Part shown: positions 25-12,902 of the stretch, piece after piece | Position numbering within the stretch: position 1 is the first letter of the stretch | Layout: each line of letters starts with the position of its first letter | DNA from: a virus | Length of the DNA stretch: 12,902 nucleotides | Strand: one strand, 5' to 3' | UHGV virus genome: UHGV-0134334 | Program-made: the position numbers and the translations under genes | The notes under the pieces: model-generated | Seen by the model: the letters and a program-made list of their open reading frames with translations, nothing else | What the model was told of the DNA's origin: nothing | Databases searched by the model: none

Positions 25-767
25 CCCATCGCAAAGTGGAATTAACGCACGAGGGGAAACGTGTTTATTGGGCGCTAAAATCGTCGCTGGATACCCTGAA
101 CCAGGAAATTCTTGATATCAAAAATCAGGAGTTATCGGGAACGTTAACTCTGTATTCCCGGCCCTCTATCGCCCAATGCTGGTTGGTGCCCGCATTAGGT
201 GACTTTACACGCCGGTATCCGTCTATTTCGCTCACCGTGCTCACTGGTAATGACAACGTCAATCTGCAACGTGCCGGAATCGATTTGGCGATCTACTTTG
301 ATGATGCGCCGTCAGCGCAACTCACTCATCACTTTCTGATGGATGAAGAAATCCTGCCAGTATGTAGCCCGGAATACGCTCAAAGACATGCTTTAACCAA
401 CACGGTAATTAACCTGTGTCACTGTACGTTGCTCCATGACAGACAGGCATGGAGCAACGACTCCGGTACGGATGAATGGCATAGTTGGGCGCAACATTAT
501 GCGGTTAATTTGCCGACATCTTCTGGAATTGGCTTTGATCGTTCTGATTTAGCTGTTATTGCCGCGATGAATCATATTGGGGTGGCGATGGGAAGAAAAC
601 GCCTGGTACAAAAAAGGCTTGCCAGTGGTGAGCTCGTCGCGCCGTTTGGCGATATGACGGTGAAATGCCATCAGCATTATTACATCACCACATTACCGGG
701 CAGGCAGTGGCCAAAAATTGAAGCGTTTATTACCTGGCTAAGAGAACAGGTAAAAACCACTTCATAA
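25..767 (+). CDS. dsdC: LysR-family transcriptional regulator DsdC (D-serine deaminase activator), 5'-truncated by the window and adapter
   Basis: The ORF 36..767 translation matches my recollection of the E. coli DsdC C-terminal substrate-binding region. The frame stays open upstream to nt 25 (..SHRKVELTHEGKRVY..), so the GTG at 36 is internal. It lies convergent with torI at about 180 nt, as at the K-12 CPS-53/KplE1 junction. Confidence 0.8.
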
Positions 768-861
768 TGAATAAAACCACGAGTTCCTGGTGTGCCTTAT
801 TCGGCCTGCTAGTTCGAATTTAATTTACGGTTTTTATGTGGTTTTAGGGATAAACACAAGG

Positions 862-877
862 ATGGTGTCCCCTGCAG
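862..877 (-). other. Prophage attR core: 16-bp copy of the argW tRNA 3' end (CTGCAGGGGACACCAT on the minus strand)
   Basis: The minus strand reads CTGCAGGGGACACCAT, which is the end of the T-stem, the acceptor stem and CCA of tRNA-Arg (argW) as I recall it. Upstream tRNA sequence is absent, so this is a partial copy typical of an att core. Host DNA (dsdC) lies on one side and phage DNA (torI) on the other. Confidence 0.6.
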
Positions 878-950
878 ACATCTACTTGAAGCGGCAGGGG
901 ATTGATTGGAATGGTGTTTTTTAGATGTGAGAAATATTTTACCCGCTATT

Positions 951-1151
951 TTACCCATTGGCGCGGCTTAAGAGCTTATTTTTGAATTCACAATGGTCAC
1001 GATATAACCATCTTGCTCGCCCGTGGATAACTTTGGCTTTAGGCAGGTCGCCGGACTTAATCCGGTCGTAGATGAAGGTCTTACCGAAGCCAGTATCAGC
1101 CATGATGAATTTCAAATCAACCAGTGAATCAGGTTGTAGTTCGTGTTGCAT
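951..1151 (-). CDS. torI: Excisionase / recombination directionality factor TorI (KplE1-type Xis)
   Basis: The 66-aa ORF (MQHELQPDSLVDLKFIMADTGFGKTFIYDRIKSGDLPKAKVIHGRARWLY..) matches E. coli TorI in size and position, directly inside attR and convergent with dsdC. An RBS (GGAGA) sits 9 nt upstream of the ATG. Confidence 0.8.
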   Translation of the reverse strand: MQHELQPDSLVDLKFIMADTGFGKTFIYDRIKSGDLPKAKVIHGRARWLYRDHCEFKNKLLSRANG

Positions 1152-1192
1152 GAGTGCTATCTCCGAATAGGGAATCGAACCTGCAAATCAGG

Positions 1193-1217
1193 CAATAAAA
1201 AACCGCCATCAGGCGGC
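1193..1217 (-). terminator. Rho-independent terminator (minus strand) between the small early-left ORF and torI
   Basis: Minus-strand hairpin GCCGCC-UGAU-GGCGG followed by UUUUUUAUU. It overlaps the stop codon of the upstream small ORF. Confidence 0.5.
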
Positions 1218-1376
1218 TTGGTGTTCTTTCAGTTCTTCAATTCGAATATTGGTTACGTCTGCATGTGCTATCTGCGCCCATATCATCCAGTGGTCATAGC
1301 AGTCGTTGAAGTCCTCTGCTTCGATACGAGCGATTTCCTCTTTCATTCTCGTAGTTAAGCGGATTGATGACATATT
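1209..1376 (-). CDS. Small hypothetical early-left protein (55 aa from the internal ATG; the longest ORF extends to 1442)
   Basis: ORF 1209..1442. The internal ATG at 1376 is preceded by GAGAGG with 7-nt spacing (..GAGAGGAATTAATATGTCATCA..). No recognisable family. Confidence 0.4.
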   Translation of the reverse strand, partial: NMSSIRLTTRMKEEIARIEAEDFNDCYDHWMIWAQIAHADVTNIRIEELKEHQAA

Positions 1377-1438
1377 AATTCCTCTCAAATAAGTGGTTTG
1401 CTGCCAAAACAATGAACCATCCGGAAATTCCAGATAGT

Positions 1439-1666
1439 TCATAATTCACTCTTCAATACTTCCAACTTACTAATCGCCGATAGATATCCGCGCTGATAGG
1501 GAATCATCATTCCTTCGAGCTTGCCACTTCTTAACTCCTCCCTGAGCAATTGTATTGCTTGATCAATAACCTCTGCCTTAGCGTCCTTTATGGCTTGCTT
1601 GCGGGGCTTTGCTTTCTGCTTTGGCAGATTTCTCAAGCATGATGGAATGTATGTCTGATTCATCAC
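1439..1666 (-). CDS. Hypothetical early-left protein (75 aa)
   Basis: ORF directly downstream of and abutting the N-like gene in the same orientation. Basic, with predicted coiled coil. No recognisable family. Confidence 0.45.
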   Translation of the reverse strand: MMNQTYIPSCLRNLPKQKAKPRKQAIKDAKAEVIDQAIQLLREELRSGKLEGMMIPYQRGYLSAISKLEVLKSEL

Positions 1667-2050
1667 TTACCTCGCTGTCAGTTGCTTTGATTTCCGGTAG
1701 CCTGCCGCGTAAATGGCTACGTTTGGAAGACATACACCAGTTTCTGGTTGCTTATGTCCAAACTCATTCGCGTACACAATGGCCGCTCTCTCCAGATTGC
1801 GTCTGTATTCTTTCTGTTGCCAGATCACGTCCTGTGCCATGAACTTAATTGGCTTAGCGTCTTCTATGCGCTCAGGCGTTTCGTGAGTACCTTTAGCCTG
1901 AATCTGCGCTCTGCTTAGAGTAGGGCGGTGTAATACTTCTGAACTTATTGCTTCTTCGCGGGCCAGTACGCCGTTAGCTAATGCCTTTGCCTTTAAACGC
2001 TCACGACGACGAGAACGTGAATTGCCTTTGAACTGAGTTCTGCGTGTCAT
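1667..2050 (-). CDS. N-type transcription antitermination protein, P22 gp24-like
   Basis: The 127-aa ORF has an arginine-rich N-terminal motif (..GNSRSRRRERLKAK..) and a C-terminus (..VAIYAAGYRKSKQLTAR) closely resembling the P22 gene 24 product (..ALYAAGHRKSKQITAR). It sits downstream of pL with a GACAA-loop boxB in its leader. Confidence 0.75.
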   Translation of the reverse strand: MTRRTQFKGNSRSRRRERLKAKALANGVLAREEAISSEVLHRPTLSRAQIQAKGTHETPERIEDAKPIKFMAQDVIWQQKEYRRNLERAAIVYANEFGHKQPETGVCLPNVAIYAAGYRKSKQLTAR

Positions 2051-2311
2051 ATAGACCTCCTGATGAACTTTGGTGGTGTGGTGGCTGGTAGTCTAGCTCC
2101 AGCTTGTTGAGTCTCATTCGGAGGGGTATAACCGGCACCCCAGCGATTTTTCCATGCGACAACGTGCGCGTTATGGCGGCCTTATCGCCCGCGGCTCCCC
2201 ATCTCGTCCACGCTATTGCTAGCGTTGGGAGCGCTTCACCGCTCAACAGTAGGTAAGCACTTGCCAGTGACTAGCTGGCTTCACCACACCCCAAAGTTCA
2301 CTTTGGTTATT

Positions 2312-2326
2312 GCGCTTTGTCAGCGC
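2312..2326 (-). promoter_or_regulatory. nutL boxB RNA hairpin, P22 type (GCGCU-GACAA-AGCGC)
   Basis: Minus strand reads GCGCTGACAAAGCGC: a 5-bp stem with a GACAA pentaloop, the P22-type boxB, in the pL leader about 65 nt downstream of the predicted pL start. Confidence 0.6.
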
Positions 2327-2387
2327 CGTAGATTCTTGCTTGAATCGTTGTATATTCACCGCCCTGGTGAGTAGTGCGTCCTGCTGA

Positions 2388-2457
2388 TGTGTTTATTATC
2401 ACCGCCAGTGGTATTTATGTCAACACCGCCAGAGATAATTTATCACCGCAGATGGTT
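2388..2457 (-). promoter_or_regulatory. Lambda-type OL1-OL2-OL3 operators with the pL promoter
   Basis: Exact lambda operator sequences: TATCACCGCCAGTGGTA (2397-2413), CAACACCGCCAGAGATA (2421-2437) and TATCACCGCAGATGGTT (2441-2457). On the minus strand the -35 TTGACA and -10 GATAAT direct transcription leftward toward N. Confidence 0.85.
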
Positions 2458-2610
2458 ATCTGTATGTTTTTTATATATATTTATTTTTTGCAGGGGTGTG
2501 TGGCTTGGGAGGTGATCGAGAGATCTGAATTGCGATGTTTAGTGAGTTGTATCTATTAATTTTCAAATAAATACAATTGGTTATGTGTTATTGGGTGAAG
2601 GGGATCGTGA

Positions 2611-2640
2611 GGCAAAGAAAACCCGGCGCTGAGGCCGGGT
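2611..2640 (-). terminator. Rho-independent terminator ending the cI-ORF145-ORF123 operon
   Basis: Minus-strand hairpin ACCCGGC-CUCAGC-GCCGGGU followed by UUUCUUUG, 7 nt after the ORF123 stop. Confidence 0.5.
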
Positions 2641-2646
2641 TGTGTG

Positions 2647-3018
2647 TTACTTAAGAACGAGTCCGTTTAAGGCATCAAGGATTTTGGAAACATAACTTCC
2701 AAAAATGTAGGCGCAAAATGCGAACACGAAACTGACAACGACCGCAGATGCCTTGATGGTGATTTTTGCTGAGCTAATGCTTGTCTCAATACCTGACAGA
2801 CGAGAATCTACAGATTTTATATCTGACTTTACTTCAGCGAGATCGCGCTTGATGTATTCAACATCAGACTCTAGCTTTGCAACTCTAGCCTCAAGCATGT
2901 TACCTCCGCCGTTTCCTCCACCATGCCGTGAGTATGCATCATCAGTGGAATAGTGTCCAATTGGGCGAGATATGTTTTGATTTGGACGAAGCTGAGCAAC
3001 CTTGTTATCTAAACTCAT
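2647..3018 (-). CDS. Small membrane protein with a Gly-rich motif (HGGGNGGGN), a coiled coil and a C-terminal transmembrane anchor; accessory gene occupying the position lambda uses for rexB
   Basis: 123-aa ORF with a hydrophobic C-terminal helix (..ASAVVVSFVFAFCAYIFGSYV..), last gene of the cI operon. A strong internal SD (GGAGGT) precedes the in-frame ATG at 2898, giving an alternative 83-aa form. Paralogous to ORF 9198..9533. Confidence 0.55.
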   Translation of the reverse strand: MSLDNKVAQLRPNQNISRPIGHYSTDDAYSRHGGGNGGGNMLEARVAKLESDVEYIKRDLAEVKSDIKSVDSRLSGIETSISSAKITIKASAVVVSFVFAFCAYIFGSYVSKILDALNGLVLK

Positions 3019-3442
3019 CGCGAACTGATCCTGTTATCTTCACGTCAAAAAACGAACTTTTTACATCAATTACTTCGCCTTTATCAGGATTAACCAGTGA
3101 TGCTCTGACTTCGAATATCCCAGGCTTGATAATTTTCACCCTTGGGAAGTTAATTCTCATAGAAGTTGATACGATGGTTTCTCCATCGTTGGCTTCTGCT
3201 ACCGTAAAAAACTTATGGTTGGAGTACAGTTTTGTGTCAATTGGTATCGGTATTTCTTGAGCATTGAAAACCTCAATGCCTATGGAATATTTTTTTGTAG
3301 CCTTAAGGCCGATAAAAAAAGCGCCAAATGATAGATCCACTTCATGGGAGTCTTTATCCATTTCATAGATAAGAACTGGAGTTACTGGGTTGCCTTCATC
3401 CATCGCAATCGGAATGATATAAGAAATACGTTCTTTAATCAT
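3005..3442 (-). CDS. Hypothetical soluble protein (145 aa); accessory gene occupying the position lambda uses for rexA
   Basis: ORF starts 8 nt downstream of the cI stop and overlaps ORF123 by 14 nt. AT-rich relative to cI. No transmembrane segment and no recognisable family. Confidence 0.55.
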   Translation of the reverse strand: MIKERISYIIPIAMDEGNPVTPVLIYEMDKDSHEVDLSFGAFFIGLKATKKYSIGIEVFNAQEIPIPIDTKLYSNHKFFTVAEANDGETIVSTSMRINFPRVKIIKPGIFEVRASLVNPDKGEVIDVKSSFFDVKITGSVRDEFR

Positions 3443-3449
3443 TTACGTG

Positions 3450-4166
<717 letters not shown>

Positions 4167-5078: not shown

Positions 5079-5970
5079 CATATCTAATCTAGCCGAAGCC
5101 AGAGAGGCCAGAAGGCTACAACAACCGCATCAAAGCAGCGGTAAGGGGTATGCCTTGCTGCACCGTAAAATTATGGATGTGCCGTTTTACAAGGACGCAG
5201 AAGCTGCGCATCTGTGGGTTCACTTAATCCTCAAAGCAAAGCATACGCCTGAGTATGTAATGACTGACGCAGGAGAAATTCTGGTAGGCAGAGGGAAGCT
5301 ACTTGGCGGTAGAAACTCTCTGGCGTTTGAAACAGGACTCAAACCAGATCGCGTTCAGTACCTGCTTAGAAAGTTCAAAAAACTCGGCATGATTGACTGG
5401 GTTTCACACGGTAGATTCTCAGTTTTCTCGGTAGAGAAATATGACGATTATCAGTCAAATTTTGTACCAGCAGATTACCAGCAAATTACCACCTCAAAGC
5501 CAGAAATACCAATGCCTGTAAGCAATACTGTACCAGCAGATTACCAGCAAATTACCACAGATAAAGAATATAATAATATTATCTCTAATACTGACGTATT
5601 AGAGAGTGCCACAGCAGACAAAAAGTCTGACAAGAAAAAACCTTCCGTTAGCTGTCAGGATATTGTCGATGCTTACCACGAAATCCTTCCTGAAGCGCCA
5701 AAAATCCGCGCACTGAATGACAAGCGTAAAAACCAGATCCGAACGTTCTGGCGCAAAGCCGGAGTGATAACCCGCCAGCTTGACGGGCATGGGTTCACGA
5801 TGCAGGACTGGAGAAATTATTTGAGCTACGTAGGCGAAAATTGCCGATGGATGTTCGAAGAACGCCCAAACCATCAACGCGGAACCGTCTGGCACAAAAA
5901 GGGATTTGATTTCCTGCTTAACGACAATACCTACCTGAAAGTTCGTGAGGGTGAACACGATGACCGATAA
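5071..5970 (+). CDS. Replication initiator, lambda O / P22 gp18-like, containing the origin iterons
   Basis: 299-aa ORF in the position of O/gene 18, after cII and before a DnaB-like helicase gene. It has internal iterons plus an AT-rich tract, and a strong RBS (AAGGAG). Confidence 0.6.
5464..5595. repeat. Candidate replication origin: four 12-bp iterons (CAGCAGATTACC / CAGCAAATTACC, twice) followed by an AT-rich tract
   Basis: The 29-bp segment GTACCAGCAGATTACCAGCAAATTACCAC occurs at 5464-5492 and again at 5530-5558, each holding two 12-mer sub-repeats. AGATAAAGAATATAATAATATTATCTCTAATA follows. The arrangement matches ori-lambda, which lies inside O. Confidence 0.55.
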
Positions 5971-6376
5971 TTTTTATGCGCCGCCCCATAGCATCGAGGC
6001 AGAGCAGGCGGTGATTGGTGGATTGCTTCTGGATGATGACAGCAGTGAGCGCGTCCAGAAAGTTCTGGCGATGCTGAAGCCTGATTCATTTTACAGCCGA
6101 CCACACAAAATCCTTTTCGAAGAGATAACCAGAATGCACCGGGAGCAAAAGCCAGTAGATGGCCTGACGCTTTTCGATGAACTGGAGCGTAAATCGTTAA
6201 CGGCGTCTGTTGGCGGTTTTGCTTATATCGCTGAGATCGCAAAGAACACGCCAAGCGCCGCAAACATCGTTGCCTATGCAATGCAGGTTCGCGAAACCGC
6301 AATGGAACGCTACGCCATCAACCGCATGACTGAAGCGACGGAATTGCTCTACGCGAAGGTGAGCAAGTGCAGGTAA
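5960..6376 (+). pseudogene. DnaB-family replicative helicase (P22 gene 12-like), N-terminal domain only, 3'-truncated
   Basis: The translation (..PPHSIEAEQAVIGGLLLDD..FYSRPHKILFEEI..SVGGFAYIAEIAKNTPSAANIVAYAMQVRE..) aligns with the N-terminal domain of E. coli DnaB. The ORF ends after about 138 aa with no Walker A or RecA-like domain. Start ATG at 5960 with RBS GAGGG. Confidence 0.7.
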
Positions 6377-6729
6377 AACGCACTGATGGAATATTCGGCA
6401 CACTTGGTAACTATGTTAGCCAATTATCTAACGGCAAGATGCTGAATAATGAGCAAGTCCAGGACTTAATCAACACCTCAAAACTGATGGCAAATACTGA
6501 AGGCCAAAAGTTTAATCAGCAAATGGATGATTATCTTTCAACTTATGGAGATTCTCTCCCCAGCGGACTAACTAAGCAATTGCAATCCAGAAAAGCCAAG
6601 CTGTATGAAGATATTCAGCAGCCTGCACAACAACAGAGCAATAACCAACAACCGACAAATACCCAACAGCAGCAGAGTCAATCCGGATCATATACCTCAA
6701 AATCAGGCATTCAATTTACGGTGGAATGA
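6367..6729 (+). CDS. Hypothetical Gln-rich protein, possibly the 3' remnant of a P22 gp20-like ejection protein gene
   Basis: 120-aa ORF beginning at the deletion junction and translationally coupled (ATGA overlap) to the downstream 708-aa ejection-protein-like gene. The assignment is by synteny only. Confidence 0.35.
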
Positions 6730-8852: not shown

Positions 8853-9176
8853 TTAATCATCCATGGATGGATTGAGCTTATCTCGTGTTGATGTGGCGAT
8901 TTGTCCTACATTCCTAAGCCAAGATTTCAAATCCTTGATATTGTCATTGATTTCATGAATATCTTCTTTTTTTAGTCTGTTAATATTATTCTCAATAATT
9001 TCAATGGATTGCTCAATATCAGATATAGTGAATGATAGTTTGTTCTTCTCATCTTTTATTGAGTTTTTAAGTGCTTCGTTCTCAGTCTTGAGGTCAGATA
9101 TCTTTTGTTTTAAAGATGCCAGTTGGTACTGAACCACAATGAGTGCGATAGCTATCACGATAACTGTTGTATACAC
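8853..9176 (-). CDS. Small membrane protein with an N-terminal transmembrane helix and coiled coil (107 aa); last gene of the mnt operon
   Basis: Hydrophobic N-terminus (MYTTVIVIAIALIVVQYQ) followed by heptad-rich sequence. RBS GGAG 7 nt upstream. AT-rich. Its stop abuts the stop of the convergent ejection-protein gene (TAATTA). Confidence 0.55.
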   Translation of the reverse strand: MYTTVIVIAIALIVVQYQLASLKQKISDLKTENEALKNSIKDEKNKLSFTISDIEQSIEIIENNINRLKKEDIHEINDNIKDLKSWLRNVGQIATSTRDKLNPSMDD

Positions 9177-9197
9177 ACAAATCTCCTTAGTTAGTAG

Positions 9198-9533
9198 CTA
9201 TTTGGTAACCAAGGCAATAAACAGCGGAGCAAGGATTGCAGATATCATGAGGGCGATAAGCCACTTCTGATTCTCGTCCATCTTATCTGCTAGGCGACGC
9301 TCCATTCCGTGCATGTCGCCACGGATGCCAATCAACTCTTTTCTAGTTTCTGATATTAGCTTTTCTTGGTTGGCGGCAATCGTTTCAATGCGGGTCATTC
9401 TACTGTTCATATCTGATCCTCCTCCATAGCCACCTCCATGTGCTGGCTCTTCTGAGTCTTCAATTCCGATGGGGGCAAATTCGCTATTCGGAAAAGGATT
9501 GTCAGCATCGTAAGCCAACTTCAACTTAGACAT
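9198..9533 (-). CDS. Small membrane protein with a Gly-rich motif (HGGGYGGGS), coiled coil and C-terminal transmembrane anchor; paralog of ORF 2647..3018
   Basis: 111-aa ORF with a C-terminal hydrophobic helix (..WLIALMISAILAPLFIALV..) and shared PIG..HGGGxGGG..M motifs with ORF123. The Gly codons (GGAGGAGGA) form an SD before the in-frame ATG. Overlaps the upstream ORF by 8 nt. Confidence 0.55.
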   Translation of the reverse strand: MSKLKLAYDADNPFPNSEFAPIGIEDSEEPAHGGGYGGGSDMNSRMTRIETIAANQEKLISETRKELIGIRGDMHGMERRLADKMDENQKWLIALMISAILAPLFIALVTK

Positions 9534-9891
9534 TGCTGTTTTTCTCCCTTAGATACCAGCTTAACACAACACCTGTGTTGTACTGCATAATGTATCCGCA
9601 ATGCTTGCAAATTACATGATAAGAGTAATTTATTGGGTTGAATGATTCATCTTCGTTTTTTATATATTCACCATAATGGGCATGCCTACCCATGATGTCT
9701 TTTCCATTATCCTGATTTACAAATTGAACTTGAGGGACAACCATTTCAGACTGCCCGCACATTGGGCATTCGTCTGGAACACCTTTAGCTCTCAAGAAAG
9801 AGTCGAGAACCTTTGTAGTTATAGACGATAGCGCCTTGCGATATTCAGCCTCTCGCAGTTGATCGTCTGAGTATCCTGAATTGTCACTCAT
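9526..9891 (-). CDS. Zinc-ribbon protein (two CxxC pairs), translationally coupled to mnt (121 aa)
   Basis: CPMCGQ and CKHCGY motifs about 50 aa apart. The start codon overlaps the mnt stop (ATGA). No recognisable family. Confidence 0.55.
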   Translation of the reverse strand: MSDNSGYSDDQLREAEYRKALSSITTKVLDSFLRAKGVPDECPMCGQSEMVVPQVQFVNQDNGKDIMGRHAHYGEYIKNEDESFNPINYSYHVICKHCGYIMQYNTGVVLSWYLREKNSNV

Positions 9892-10385: not shown

Positions 10386-10418
10386 TTCGCTTGGATGCGG
10401 CAAAGAAATCAAAACAGT

Positions 10419-10450
10419 GAAGCCCCAACTGCGGGAACAGTCAGGGCTTC
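10419..10450. other. Stable hairpin in the arc-ant intergenic region; possible sar-like antisense RNA terminator or attenuator
   Basis: GAAGCCC-(18 nt)-GGGCTTC inverted repeat. On the minus strand it is followed by a T-rich tract (ACTGTTTTGATTTCTTTG). Confidence 0.3.
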
Positions 10451-10483
10451 GGTATCGTAAAACCACGCATAGGAATTAACGAC

Positions 10484-11407
10484 ATGAAAAGTATAGCAAC
10501 AGCAGTATCTACTATCAATGTACCATTCCACGGCGCAGAGCTTTATGTTGTCAATCACAACGGCGAACCGTATACCCCAATGAAACCTATCGTTGAGGGA
10601 ATGGGGCTAGACTGGAAATCTCAACATAAGAAGATTTCTCAACGCTTCTCGAAGGGTATGGTGGAAATCACCATACCTTCTGCCGGTGGGGTGCAAGCCA
10701 TGATTTGTATGGCTTTACGAAAATTGGCAGCTTGGTTGAACAGCATCAGTCCTAACAAAGTCCGCCCTGAAATCCGCGATAAGGTAATCCAGTATCAGGA
10801 AGAGTGTGACGATGTGCTCTACGACTACTGGACTAAAGGCCATGTAGTTAACCCACGCAAAGCTAAAAAGGCGTTGCCGGGTAAAATCACCACTGAACAG
10901 CAGGAAGCCATTAAACAACTCGTCATGAGTCGCGGTCAGTCTCTGCCAAAAGAAAAACAGGCGAAGGCAATGATTACCATGTGGTCGTCACTGAAATCTC
11001 ATTTTGGGTGTTCATACAAAGAAATCAGCGATGAGCAGTTTACCGAAGCTCTGTCACTTGCAGCTCGCGTTCCGCTTGAAGGCGAGTTAATCGGCAAACA
11101 AGAGAAGAAAGCAAACGAGCTTTCTGCAAAAGAAGCAAACAGCCTTGTATGGTTATGGGATTATGCCAACCGCTCACAGGCATTATTCCGCGAACTGTAT
11201 CCGGCGCTAAAACAAATTCAATCGAACTATTCAGGCAGATGCTACGACTACGGTCATGAGTTCTCGTATGTTATCGGAATGGCAAGAGACGTTTTAATCA
11301 ATCGCACACGAGATGTTGATATTAATGAGCCAGACGGACCAACGAATCTTTCCGCATGGATGAGACTTAAGAATAAAGAATTACCTCCTTCAGTACATAA
11401 CTACTGA
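10484..11407 (+). CDS. ant: Antirepressor Ant (P22 Ant-like N-terminal domain)
   Basis: The 307-aa ORF has an N-terminus (..VPFHGAELYVVNHNGEPYTPMKPIVEGMGLDWKSQHKKI..) typical of phage antirepressor N-terminal domains. It follows arc and is opposed by mnt, the P22 immI arrangement. Confidence 0.8.
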   Translation: MKSIATAVSTINVPFHGAELYVVNHNGEPYTPMKPIVEGMGLDWKSQHKKISQRFSKGMVEITIPSAGGVQAMICMALRKLAAWLNSISPNKVRPEIRDKVIQYQEECDDVLYDYWTKGHVVNPRKAKKALPGKITTEQQEAIKQLVMSRGQSLPKEKQAKAMITMWSSLKSHFGCSYKEISDEQFTEALSLAARVPLEGELIGKQEKKANELSAKEANSLVWLWDYANRSQALFRELYPALKQIQSNYSGRCYDYGHEFSYVIGMARDVLINRTRDVDINEPDGPTNLSAWMRLKNKELPPSVHNY

Positions 11408-11425
11408 CAGATAACCAACGCAACG

Positions 11426-11450
11426 ACCCAGCTTCGGCTGGGTTTTTTTA
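11426..11450 (+). terminator. Rho-independent terminator after ant
   Basis: ACCCAGC-TTCG-GCTGGGT hairpin followed by TTTTTTT. Confidence 0.8.
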
Positions 11451-11507
11451 TGCCCAAAATTCACCGTGGCCACGCTGCGGCGATTCATTGTATCTGGAGC
11501 AAATTAA

Positions 11508-12851
11508 ATGACAGACATTACAGCCAATGTGATCGTATCGATGCCTTCGCAACTTTTCACTATGGCGCGTTCTTTTAAAGCCGTAGCCAATGGCAAAATT
11601 TATATCGGTAAAATTGACACTGACCCGGTAAATCCAGAAAACCAGATTCAGGTTTATATGGAGAATGAAGACGGCTCTCACGTTCCTGTTTCGCAACCAA
11701 TCATCATTAACGCTGCTGGTTACCCTGTATATAACGGACAGATTGCCAAGTTCGTTACTGTGCAAGGCCATTCTATGGCTGTTTATGATGCATACGGTGC
11801 GCAGCAGTTCTATTTTCCTAATGTGCTGAAGTATGACCCTGATCAATTAAGACAGGAGCTATCTAAGCAGACTGATGGTTATTTTTTTAACCTTCCTCAA
11901 GGTGGTGTACTACATGATGCAATAAAGTATGTAACACCAGAAATGTATATCAATACATCTTCAGATATTACATCTGCTATACAAAGCGCATTTGACAATG
12001 GAAATGTGATTGATATGTCAGGTAGAGACTGGACTCTTGAGAGAACAATCCATGTCGGTGATGGCACTGAAATAAAGTTAGGCGCATCAACAATTACATG
12101 TCAACTTGGTTCTAAACCTGCTTTTGACTTTAGAGGAACAGATAAAGGACTCTTGGTCACAGGAGGTAAGTTTATTGGTAATTGCTCTGCAGTATTTTAT
12201 TTCCAAGGGACTACTGCTTTCCCTTCTCAATCAGGTCACTATGCAAGAAAAATAAGAATATACGGCACAGATGCTACTTCAGATACGGATGAGATAATTG
12301 ATTTCATCTATATGAAGGACGCTGTAAGGCAAGTTTTTATTGATTCATGTTATGCATATGTAAAAAACGGCATTACTGCAAGCGGAAAATGTGTGGAGGT
12401 GAAAGTCCAAAAAAGCATATTCAACTCAGGAACTTCCGATCAAAGTTCTTCTAGAATAAGTCTAAATTCACCGTCAGGAGCAAGTTATTACAACGAAGGT
12501 TGGCATTTTAGTGATTGTACAATTGATGGAGTTGGAAAATCATTTAATGTTACCGATATATATTCGTTAACCATCAATGGAGGATTTATCGGTGGTGAGG
12601 TTGCGTTTGGACAGCCAATAACAACACATTGCCGTGAGATCGTACTCGGTGGTGGATTAATCATGAAAGGGCGTGTTACTTTCACGCCAACCGTACAATA
12701 TGACTACAGGGCCAACATATCTCCTTCTCTTATGTTTGGTAATGGTGGAGTTGGAAACGTGGTCCTTAATGCAGGTGCTTCAGGCATCAACGTTAGCACA
12801 AAACTTGAAAGTTCTGGTGTTTCAGGAGGAACTGGCGTTATTGTTAATTGA
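11508..12851 (+). CDS. Tailspike protein: P22 gp9-like N-terminal head-binding domain plus a divergent beta-helix receptor-binding domain; probably 3'-truncated by IS insertion
   Basis: The N-terminal roughly 110 aa ([63 protein letters not shown]) align closely with the P22 tailspike head-binding domain. Its stop codon TGA is formed by the first bases of an IS3-like terminal repeat (TGATCC..). At 447 aa it is short for a tailspike. Confidence 0.75.
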
Positions 12852-12902
12852 TCCTACCCACGTAATATGGACACAGGCCTAAGCGAGGTTCTGGTTTTCA
12901 AA
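12849..12902. mobile_element. IS3-family insertion sequence terminal inverted repeat (partial element, cut by the window end)
   Basis: TGATCCTACCCACGTAATATGGACACAGGCCTAAGCGAGG resembles the IS3 left end as I recall it (TGATCTTACCCAGCAATAGTGGACACGCGGCTAAGTGAG), with the TG start characteristic of IS3-family ends. Confidence 0.5.

Follow-up and report, generated by a model that had tools for sequence, protein, structure and literature searches.

The stretch of viral DNA analysed here (UHGV virus genome UHGV-0134334; the whole of its 12,902 nucleotides is referred to below as the window) closes on a gene for a P22-like phage tailspike whose reading frame stops after 447 codons, only a short distance before the last letter, and thereby raises the question of what ended that gene. 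An earlier note, made from the letters alone, had proposed that an element of the IS3 family begins exactly at the end of the tailspike gene, that its first bases form the TGA stop, and that the C-terminal part of the receptor-binding domain was removed in the process. The analysis described below follows that proposal through comparisons with intact alleles, with annotated copies of the element, and with other contigs that carry the same product, and then considers what the event would have meant for the protein and for its prophage.

The truncated gene and the features at its end

The particle-attachment end of the protein is readily recognized. The Pfam family Head_binding (PF09008) covers residues 1-113 of the 447-residue product over the full length of its model (113 positions, 3.6e-67), and the N-terminal residues 1-169/189 match Sf6 gp14 (3e-66) and the P22 tailspike (6e-53) in the PDB, so that the description of this reading frame as one that carries a P22-type head-binding domain was borne out. 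The P22-like tailspikes continue from that domain into a beta-helix and then into a C-terminal trimerisation domain; the copy in the window ends inside the helix at residue 447, with no C-terminal domain, and is a truncated derivative rather than an intact member of the group. Its reading frame ends ...GTT ATT GTT AAT / TGA TCC TAC CC(A), where the slash marks the junction listed with the other features in Table 1.

Table 1. Positions of the truncated tailspike gene, its domains and the adjoining IS3 end in the window
Feature	Position	Strand	Description and basis
Truncated tailspike gene	11508-12851	+	447 codons plus a TGA stop from the IS; ORF list, ATG start, Pfam Head_binding
Head-binding (particle-attachment) domain, residues 1-113	11508-11846	+	PF09008; PDB sequence matches
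Surviving receptor-binding region, residues 114-447	11847-12848	+	Predicted linker, then the greater part of a right-handed parallel beta-helix; AlphaFold2, Foldseek
Insertion junction	12848-12849		AAT (codon 447) / first IS3 base; alignment with intact genes and the reference IS3 end
IS3 right end	12849-12902	-	Outermost 54 nt of IS3, read here from its terminus inward on the + strand; opposite in orientation to the tailspike gene; identical (100%) to IS3 copies
39-nt terminal inverted repeat (IRR) of IS3	12849-12887		Begins TGATCC; inverted-repeat search, reference copy
End of IS3 orfB (catalytic part of the transposase)	12879-12902	-	Last 7 codons and stop, translating as FENQNLA and stop; annotated transposase CDS stops at the matching position in L003 and L004

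Intact alleles and homologues of the tailspike

When the interval 11400-12902 was compared by megablast with 5,426 complete Escherichia coli genomes, two of them, the chromosomes of ETEC1738 (98.6%) and JX2 (96.6%), matched from the start of the gene to base 12848 and not beyond. In both, the intact gene is 1896 nt long and adjoins intS, a tRNA-Arg gene and yfdC; its product of 631 amino acids is labelled a phage head-binding domain protein. The alignment of the window with these two genes is collinear through the AAT codon that ends at 12848 and then diverges, the intact genes reading GAAGGATGTTC... / GAAGGATGTTCTAATG... and the window reading TGATCCTACCCACG... / TGATCCTACCCACGTAATATGG.... 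Over the 1341 nt that the truncated copy has kept of this 1896-nt gene, the ETEC1738 allele and the window are 98.6% identical and differ at 20 nucleotides, but across the corresponding 447 codons they differ at a single amino acid (V51M), a disparity which indicates that the gene was under purifying selection until recently.

A family of tailspikes that naturally ends at residue 447, and that merely happens to lie beside an IS, would account for a clean in-frame stop, which is the one observation in its favour. No such end was encountered among approximately 10 close relatives (cluster members of 631-632 residues) or among 11 more distant homologues, with identities down to 33%, every one of which aligns past residue 447 to conserved C-terminal residues. 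Since the intact alleles run on for a further 184 codons from precisely the same base, and since the stop codon itself is IS sequence, the notion of a naturally short tailspike was refuted, and we give it virtually no probability.

A second, independent pseudogene allele of the tailspike was observed in other E. coli assemblies (contigs L016, at 728-2619, and L017, at 697-2588), where a 4-nt deletion immediately after codon 490 divides the gene into reading frames of 490 and 119 amino acids. Taken together, that frameshift and the junction with IS3 indicate at least two separate inactivations of the tailspike.

The element at the junction and its orientation

The 54 nucleotides that follow the break (12849-12902) were found to be 100% identical (E = 3e-19) to sequence in at least 1758 E. 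coli records, with matching records numbering 4,403 in all and the sites annotated as 'IS3-like element IS3 family transposase'; such identity to IS3 lies far beyond chance. In E. coli genomes this end of the element occurs a median of 3 times, with a maximum of 15. The proposal that an IS3-family element starts exactly where the tailspike stops, and that its first three bases (12849-12851) constitute the TGA codon, accordingly stands, as does the likeness of its repeat to known IS3 copies.

The anatomy of the element was established with a full reference copy that displays the same end as the window (locus L003, 2501-3758). That copy is 1258 bp in length, is bounded by 39-nt imperfect terminal inverted repeats of 72% complementarity, and has a CDS, annotated with a 'programmed frameshift', for OrfA, which contains an HTH_Tnp_1 domain, and OrfB, which contains the rve domain (the DDE integrase core). 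The known termini of the family (5'-TG...CA-3') are recognizable in both sequences: the window begins its IS portion with TGATCC, and the reference copy ends ...GATCA. One arm of the terminal inverted repeats lies in the window and the other end lies beyond the contig; similarly, of orfB no more than the final 7 codons fall within the window, on the minus strand, the transposase itself being absent from it, and both reading frames are seen in the full reference copy.

In one respect the earlier description required amendment. It had named the repeat that begins TGATCC as the left inverted repeat of IS3; that this is a terminus of IS3 was confirmed, but in the reference copies this end adjoins the 3' end of orfB, and its designation as the left end was rejected. 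Oriented as the window is, the L003 copy carries its transposase on the minus strand with the stop 31 nt inside the IS end, and the orientation of the transposase in reference copies therefore identifies the end in the window as the right end (IRR); the element and the tailspike gene run in opposite directions.

Nor was any special meaning found in the fact that the IS 'supplies' the stop codon. Read from the target, this end of IS3 gives an immediate stop in one frame and stops after 10 and 4 codons in the other two, so that every frame is closed within 11 codons, and a TGA in frame at the very first codon is an unremarkable, one-in-three outcome.

Recurrence of the junction in independent contigs

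A different concern is that the join between tailspike and IS3 might be a chimeric contig end produced by assembly, with the real gene intact and running past 12848 into GAAGGATG. In its favour, the window breaks off inside a multicopy repeat after 54 nt, as edges of a k = 55 assembly graph typically do. Against this, the exact 447-residue protein is recorded on 27 contigs; 10 of those 27, representing at least three ENA sample series, were retrieved, and all ten, which are independent metagenome contigs that differ in sample and in the k of the assembler, display the identical tailspike-IS3 junction with between 0 and 3 substitutions relative to the window. An artefact of this kind appears highly improbable.

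Every one of the ten contigs ends between 36 and 118 nt into IS3 (the overhangs being 36, 37, 54, 61, 92 and 118 nt) with no mismatch to the reference element; the longest, L005, extends the perfect match from the same junction to 118 nt. That all of them stop within IS3 is attributable to short-read assemblies breaking at a repeat. The junction was absent from the 5,426 complete E. coli genomes. It is real, and it is clonally inherited in one E. coli lineage that has been seen in several gut metagenome studies; fixed as it is, it offers a handy clonal marker for that lineage in gut metagenomes.

The probable insertion event and the far side of the element

The simplest course of events would be one in which IS3 transposed into the boundary between codons 447 and 448 of the tailspike gene, in a P22-like prophage residing between dsdC and argW of an E. 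coli chromosome. The element would have entered pointing against the gene, so that its right end came to adjoin codon 447 and its terminal TGA closed the reading frame at once. Beyond the window one would then expect a complete IS3 of 1258 bp, a 3-bp target duplication, and a 555-bp remnant of the 3' end of the gene. Simple insertion is the default outcome of transposition in the IS3 family, and we regard it, on the sequence comparisons described above, as the probable explanation for the truncation.

The far side was sought by several routes. Pattern scans for the junction expected there (the left end of IS3, 0-6 nt, and then GAAGGATGTTCTAATG) returned no match in genome, metagenome and viral collections. 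A generic pattern for the 3' part of the tailspike identified one contig in metagenomes, L015, in which the gene is uninterrupted at the insertion site. Guesses at the reading frame that would be left downstream likewise led to no contig with the far junction: a frame of 119 amino acids (P0123) led, among the contigs listed, to the frameshifted allele (L016 and L017) and to a contig break (L018); one of 153 amino acids (P0135) belongs to a contig of 916 nt in which the site is uninterrupted; and those of 148 amino acids were not in the protein collection. Junction scans, remnant reading frames and the ten contigs together returned no contig that crosses IS3 to its far side or to a target duplication.

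These results have a bearing on whether the gene was instead broken by an IS3-associated rearrangement, in which an adjacent deletion, or recombination between two IS3 copies, placed unrelated DNA on the far side and removed or relocated the 3' end of the gene, possibly along with intS and attL. Such an origin would be in keeping with the failure of any scanned collection to yield a far junction, and with the fate of the remnant frames (that of 148 residues absent, that of 153 residues found only on a contig with the intact gene) despite 27 contigs that carry the 447-residue product; it would also be in keeping with the other large deletion already present in this prophage, and with the multiple copies of this IS end in E. 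coli genomes. The near junction, however, was itself missing from species-representative genomes (an exact 47-nt scan) and from viral contigs (a 29-nt pattern), so that the far-junction negatives are weak and the absence says little; calls of remnant reading frames vary with the gene caller and with SNPs; and the result for the 119-residue frame covers the contigs listed. A rearrangement is, on balance, rather unlikely, and simple insertion of IS3 is the reading adopted in what follows.

Consequences for the tailspike protein

The part of the protein that was lost was examined in an AlphaFold2 model of an intact 631-residue homologue (P0001; mean pLDDT 73), in which confidence is mostly 80-96 for the helix up to about residue 410, is lower in the distal rungs and in the C-terminal domain, and is low in the N-terminal domain. 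The model places a parallel beta-helix at approximately residues 165-500 and, after a short linker, a beta-sandwich at the C-terminus (515-631), and the best Foldseek matches to it are the tailspikes of Sf6 (E = 1e-14) and P22 (1e-11), followed by other phage depolymerases. As the earlier note had supposed, the C-terminal part of the receptor-binding domain is gone: relative to the 631-residue alleles the cut drops 184 residues, which on the model comprise ~50 residues at the distal end of the helix and the whole of the ~120-residue C-terminal beta-sandwich, leaving a product with its particle-attachment domain and the greater part of its helix.

In the tailspikes of P22 and Sf6 the C-terminal domain is required for assembly of the trimer. 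The 447-residue product would therefore be expected to form no stable, active trimer, and by this analogy is presumed to be inactive.

The receptor-binding domain and its specificity

The surviving receptor domain had been noted to differ from that of P22, and the comparisons agree with that view. Sequence comparison with the solved tailspikes in the PDB detected similarity in the N-terminal domain and none in the receptor-binding part. That part has no characterised close relative; among sequenced phages its best matches come from Escherichia phage 26 and vB_EcoP_PAS61, with 32% identity over residues 114-617. Its specificity is very likely unlike that of P22, with a different O-antigen being a plausible target. 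Matches to PHROGs cover residues 1-358 only, the best being phrog_8280, which is labelled colanic-acid degrading, and the C-terminal 184 residues of the intact tailspike have no PHROG match; a specificity for colanic acid on the strength of that label was rejected, given the span of the match.

The same receptor-binding domain was also observed in two larger proteins (P0002, 732 residues; P0003, 731 residues), which are 71% and 61% identical to the query across 81% of its length; the domain is joined in each case to an unrelated N-terminus that has no head-binding domain. The arrangement indicates a probable exchange of modules between phage types, as is usual for the receptor domains of tailspikes.

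The presence of the domain in only two of the 5,426 E. coli genomes, together with the existence of a 71% identical version on another N-terminal adaptor, raises the thought that it may be a depolymerase for a surface glycan. That it would act on a glycan for which no phage enzyme has been characterised, or that the truncated product has been kept for some function at the level of the host, is a long shot, and of these two ideas the host-level function is the less likely. The intact 631-residue allele of ETEC1738 and JX2 is the version suited to probing the receptor domain.

The prophage remnant and its context

The 3' part of dsdC, encoding the LysR substrate-binding domain, lies at positions 36-767. 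Its presence at the start of the window places the prophage in the interval between dsdC and argW, and indicates that the window spans nearly the whole of the remnant. The early region is P22-like, with an N-like protein, a repressor with an S24 peptidase domain, cro, cII and a replication gene; a gp16 gene is also retained, and the immI region, which looks intact and of the P22 type, comprises mnt, arc, the sar RNA and ant, and is followed by the tailspike gene. The sar antisense RNA was located at 10416-10482 on the minus strand (Rfam RF00262, 76.6 bits against a gathering threshold of 43), between a small Arc-family gene and ant.

Three small genes of 107, 111 and 121 amino acids lie between gp16 and mnt (8853-9891, minus strand), at the position where P22 carries its superinfection-exclusion genes. 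They belong to PHROGs of unknown function, and two of them have weak holin- or hemolysin-like matches, suggesting that the products may be membrane proteins.

Similarity to complete prophages breaks at approximately 6350 (in the region 5945-6729). To the left of that point a DnaB-like helicase gene is cut 143 codons into its ~478, and to the right are the last ~100 codons of a gene for a DNA transfer protein of the gene-20 type (phrog_917, positions 408-509 of 509). In complete relatives the nin, lysis and head genes lie between the helicase gene and gene 20, and the remnant is missing the nin, lysis, terminase, portal, coat and tail-hub genes (that is, the lysis and head genes and most of those for the tail). 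The internal deletion at ~6350 is thus a large one, and the remnant, at ~13 kb, is unable to make particles.

The early-left arm, from dsdC to the repressor gene, is likewise short, measuring ~2.7 kb (767-3450) as compared to ~7.9 kb in the complete relative R18 (L021, 3244-11164), which suggests that further deletions may have removed the recombination (erf) region.

It had been proposed that loss of the tailspike's C-terminus further disabled the prophage. That statement is only trivially true: with the interval from the helicase gene to gene 20 already lost, the prophage had been gutted, and the insertion of IS3 adds nothing of consequence to its disablement. Events of this known kind are commonplace as prophages decay, and the insertion here is one more neutral step. 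The gene is accordingly best annotated as a tailspike pseudogene, disrupted by IS3, in a cryptic P22-like remnant, and not as a short tailspike or as part of an active prophage.

Comparison with known systems

In its visible part the element is indistinguishable from the IS3 of Escherichia coli, which belongs to the IS3 group of the IS3 family. The visible 54 nt, and the 118 nt visible in L005, are identical to one terminus of that element, and the part in the window shares the TG dinucleotide of the family and the 3' end of orfB, with no visible difference.

The interrupted gene corresponds to the tailspike genes of the P22-like phages. Its intact form shares with P22 gp9, Sf6 gp14 and HK620 gp9 the same predicted layout, in which a head-binding domain is followed by a parallel beta-helix and then by a C-terminal domain, and it occupies the same position, after mnt, arc, sar and ant, at the end of the prophage beside the integrase gene. 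The receptor part differs, the Foldseek alignments being only 10-12% identical there.

The remnant as a whole invites comparison with the cryptic remnants found between argW and dsdC, such as CPS-53/KpLE1 of K-12. The location is the same, with dsdC on one side and, in the intact relatives, intS, the tRNA-Arg gene and yfdC on the other, and the decay by deletions and an IS insertion would be of a similar kind. The remnant in the window would differ from CPS-53 in its P22-like ancestry, and in having kept its immunity region (S24-peptidase repressor, cro and cII), its immI region (mnt, arc, sar and ant) and gp16.
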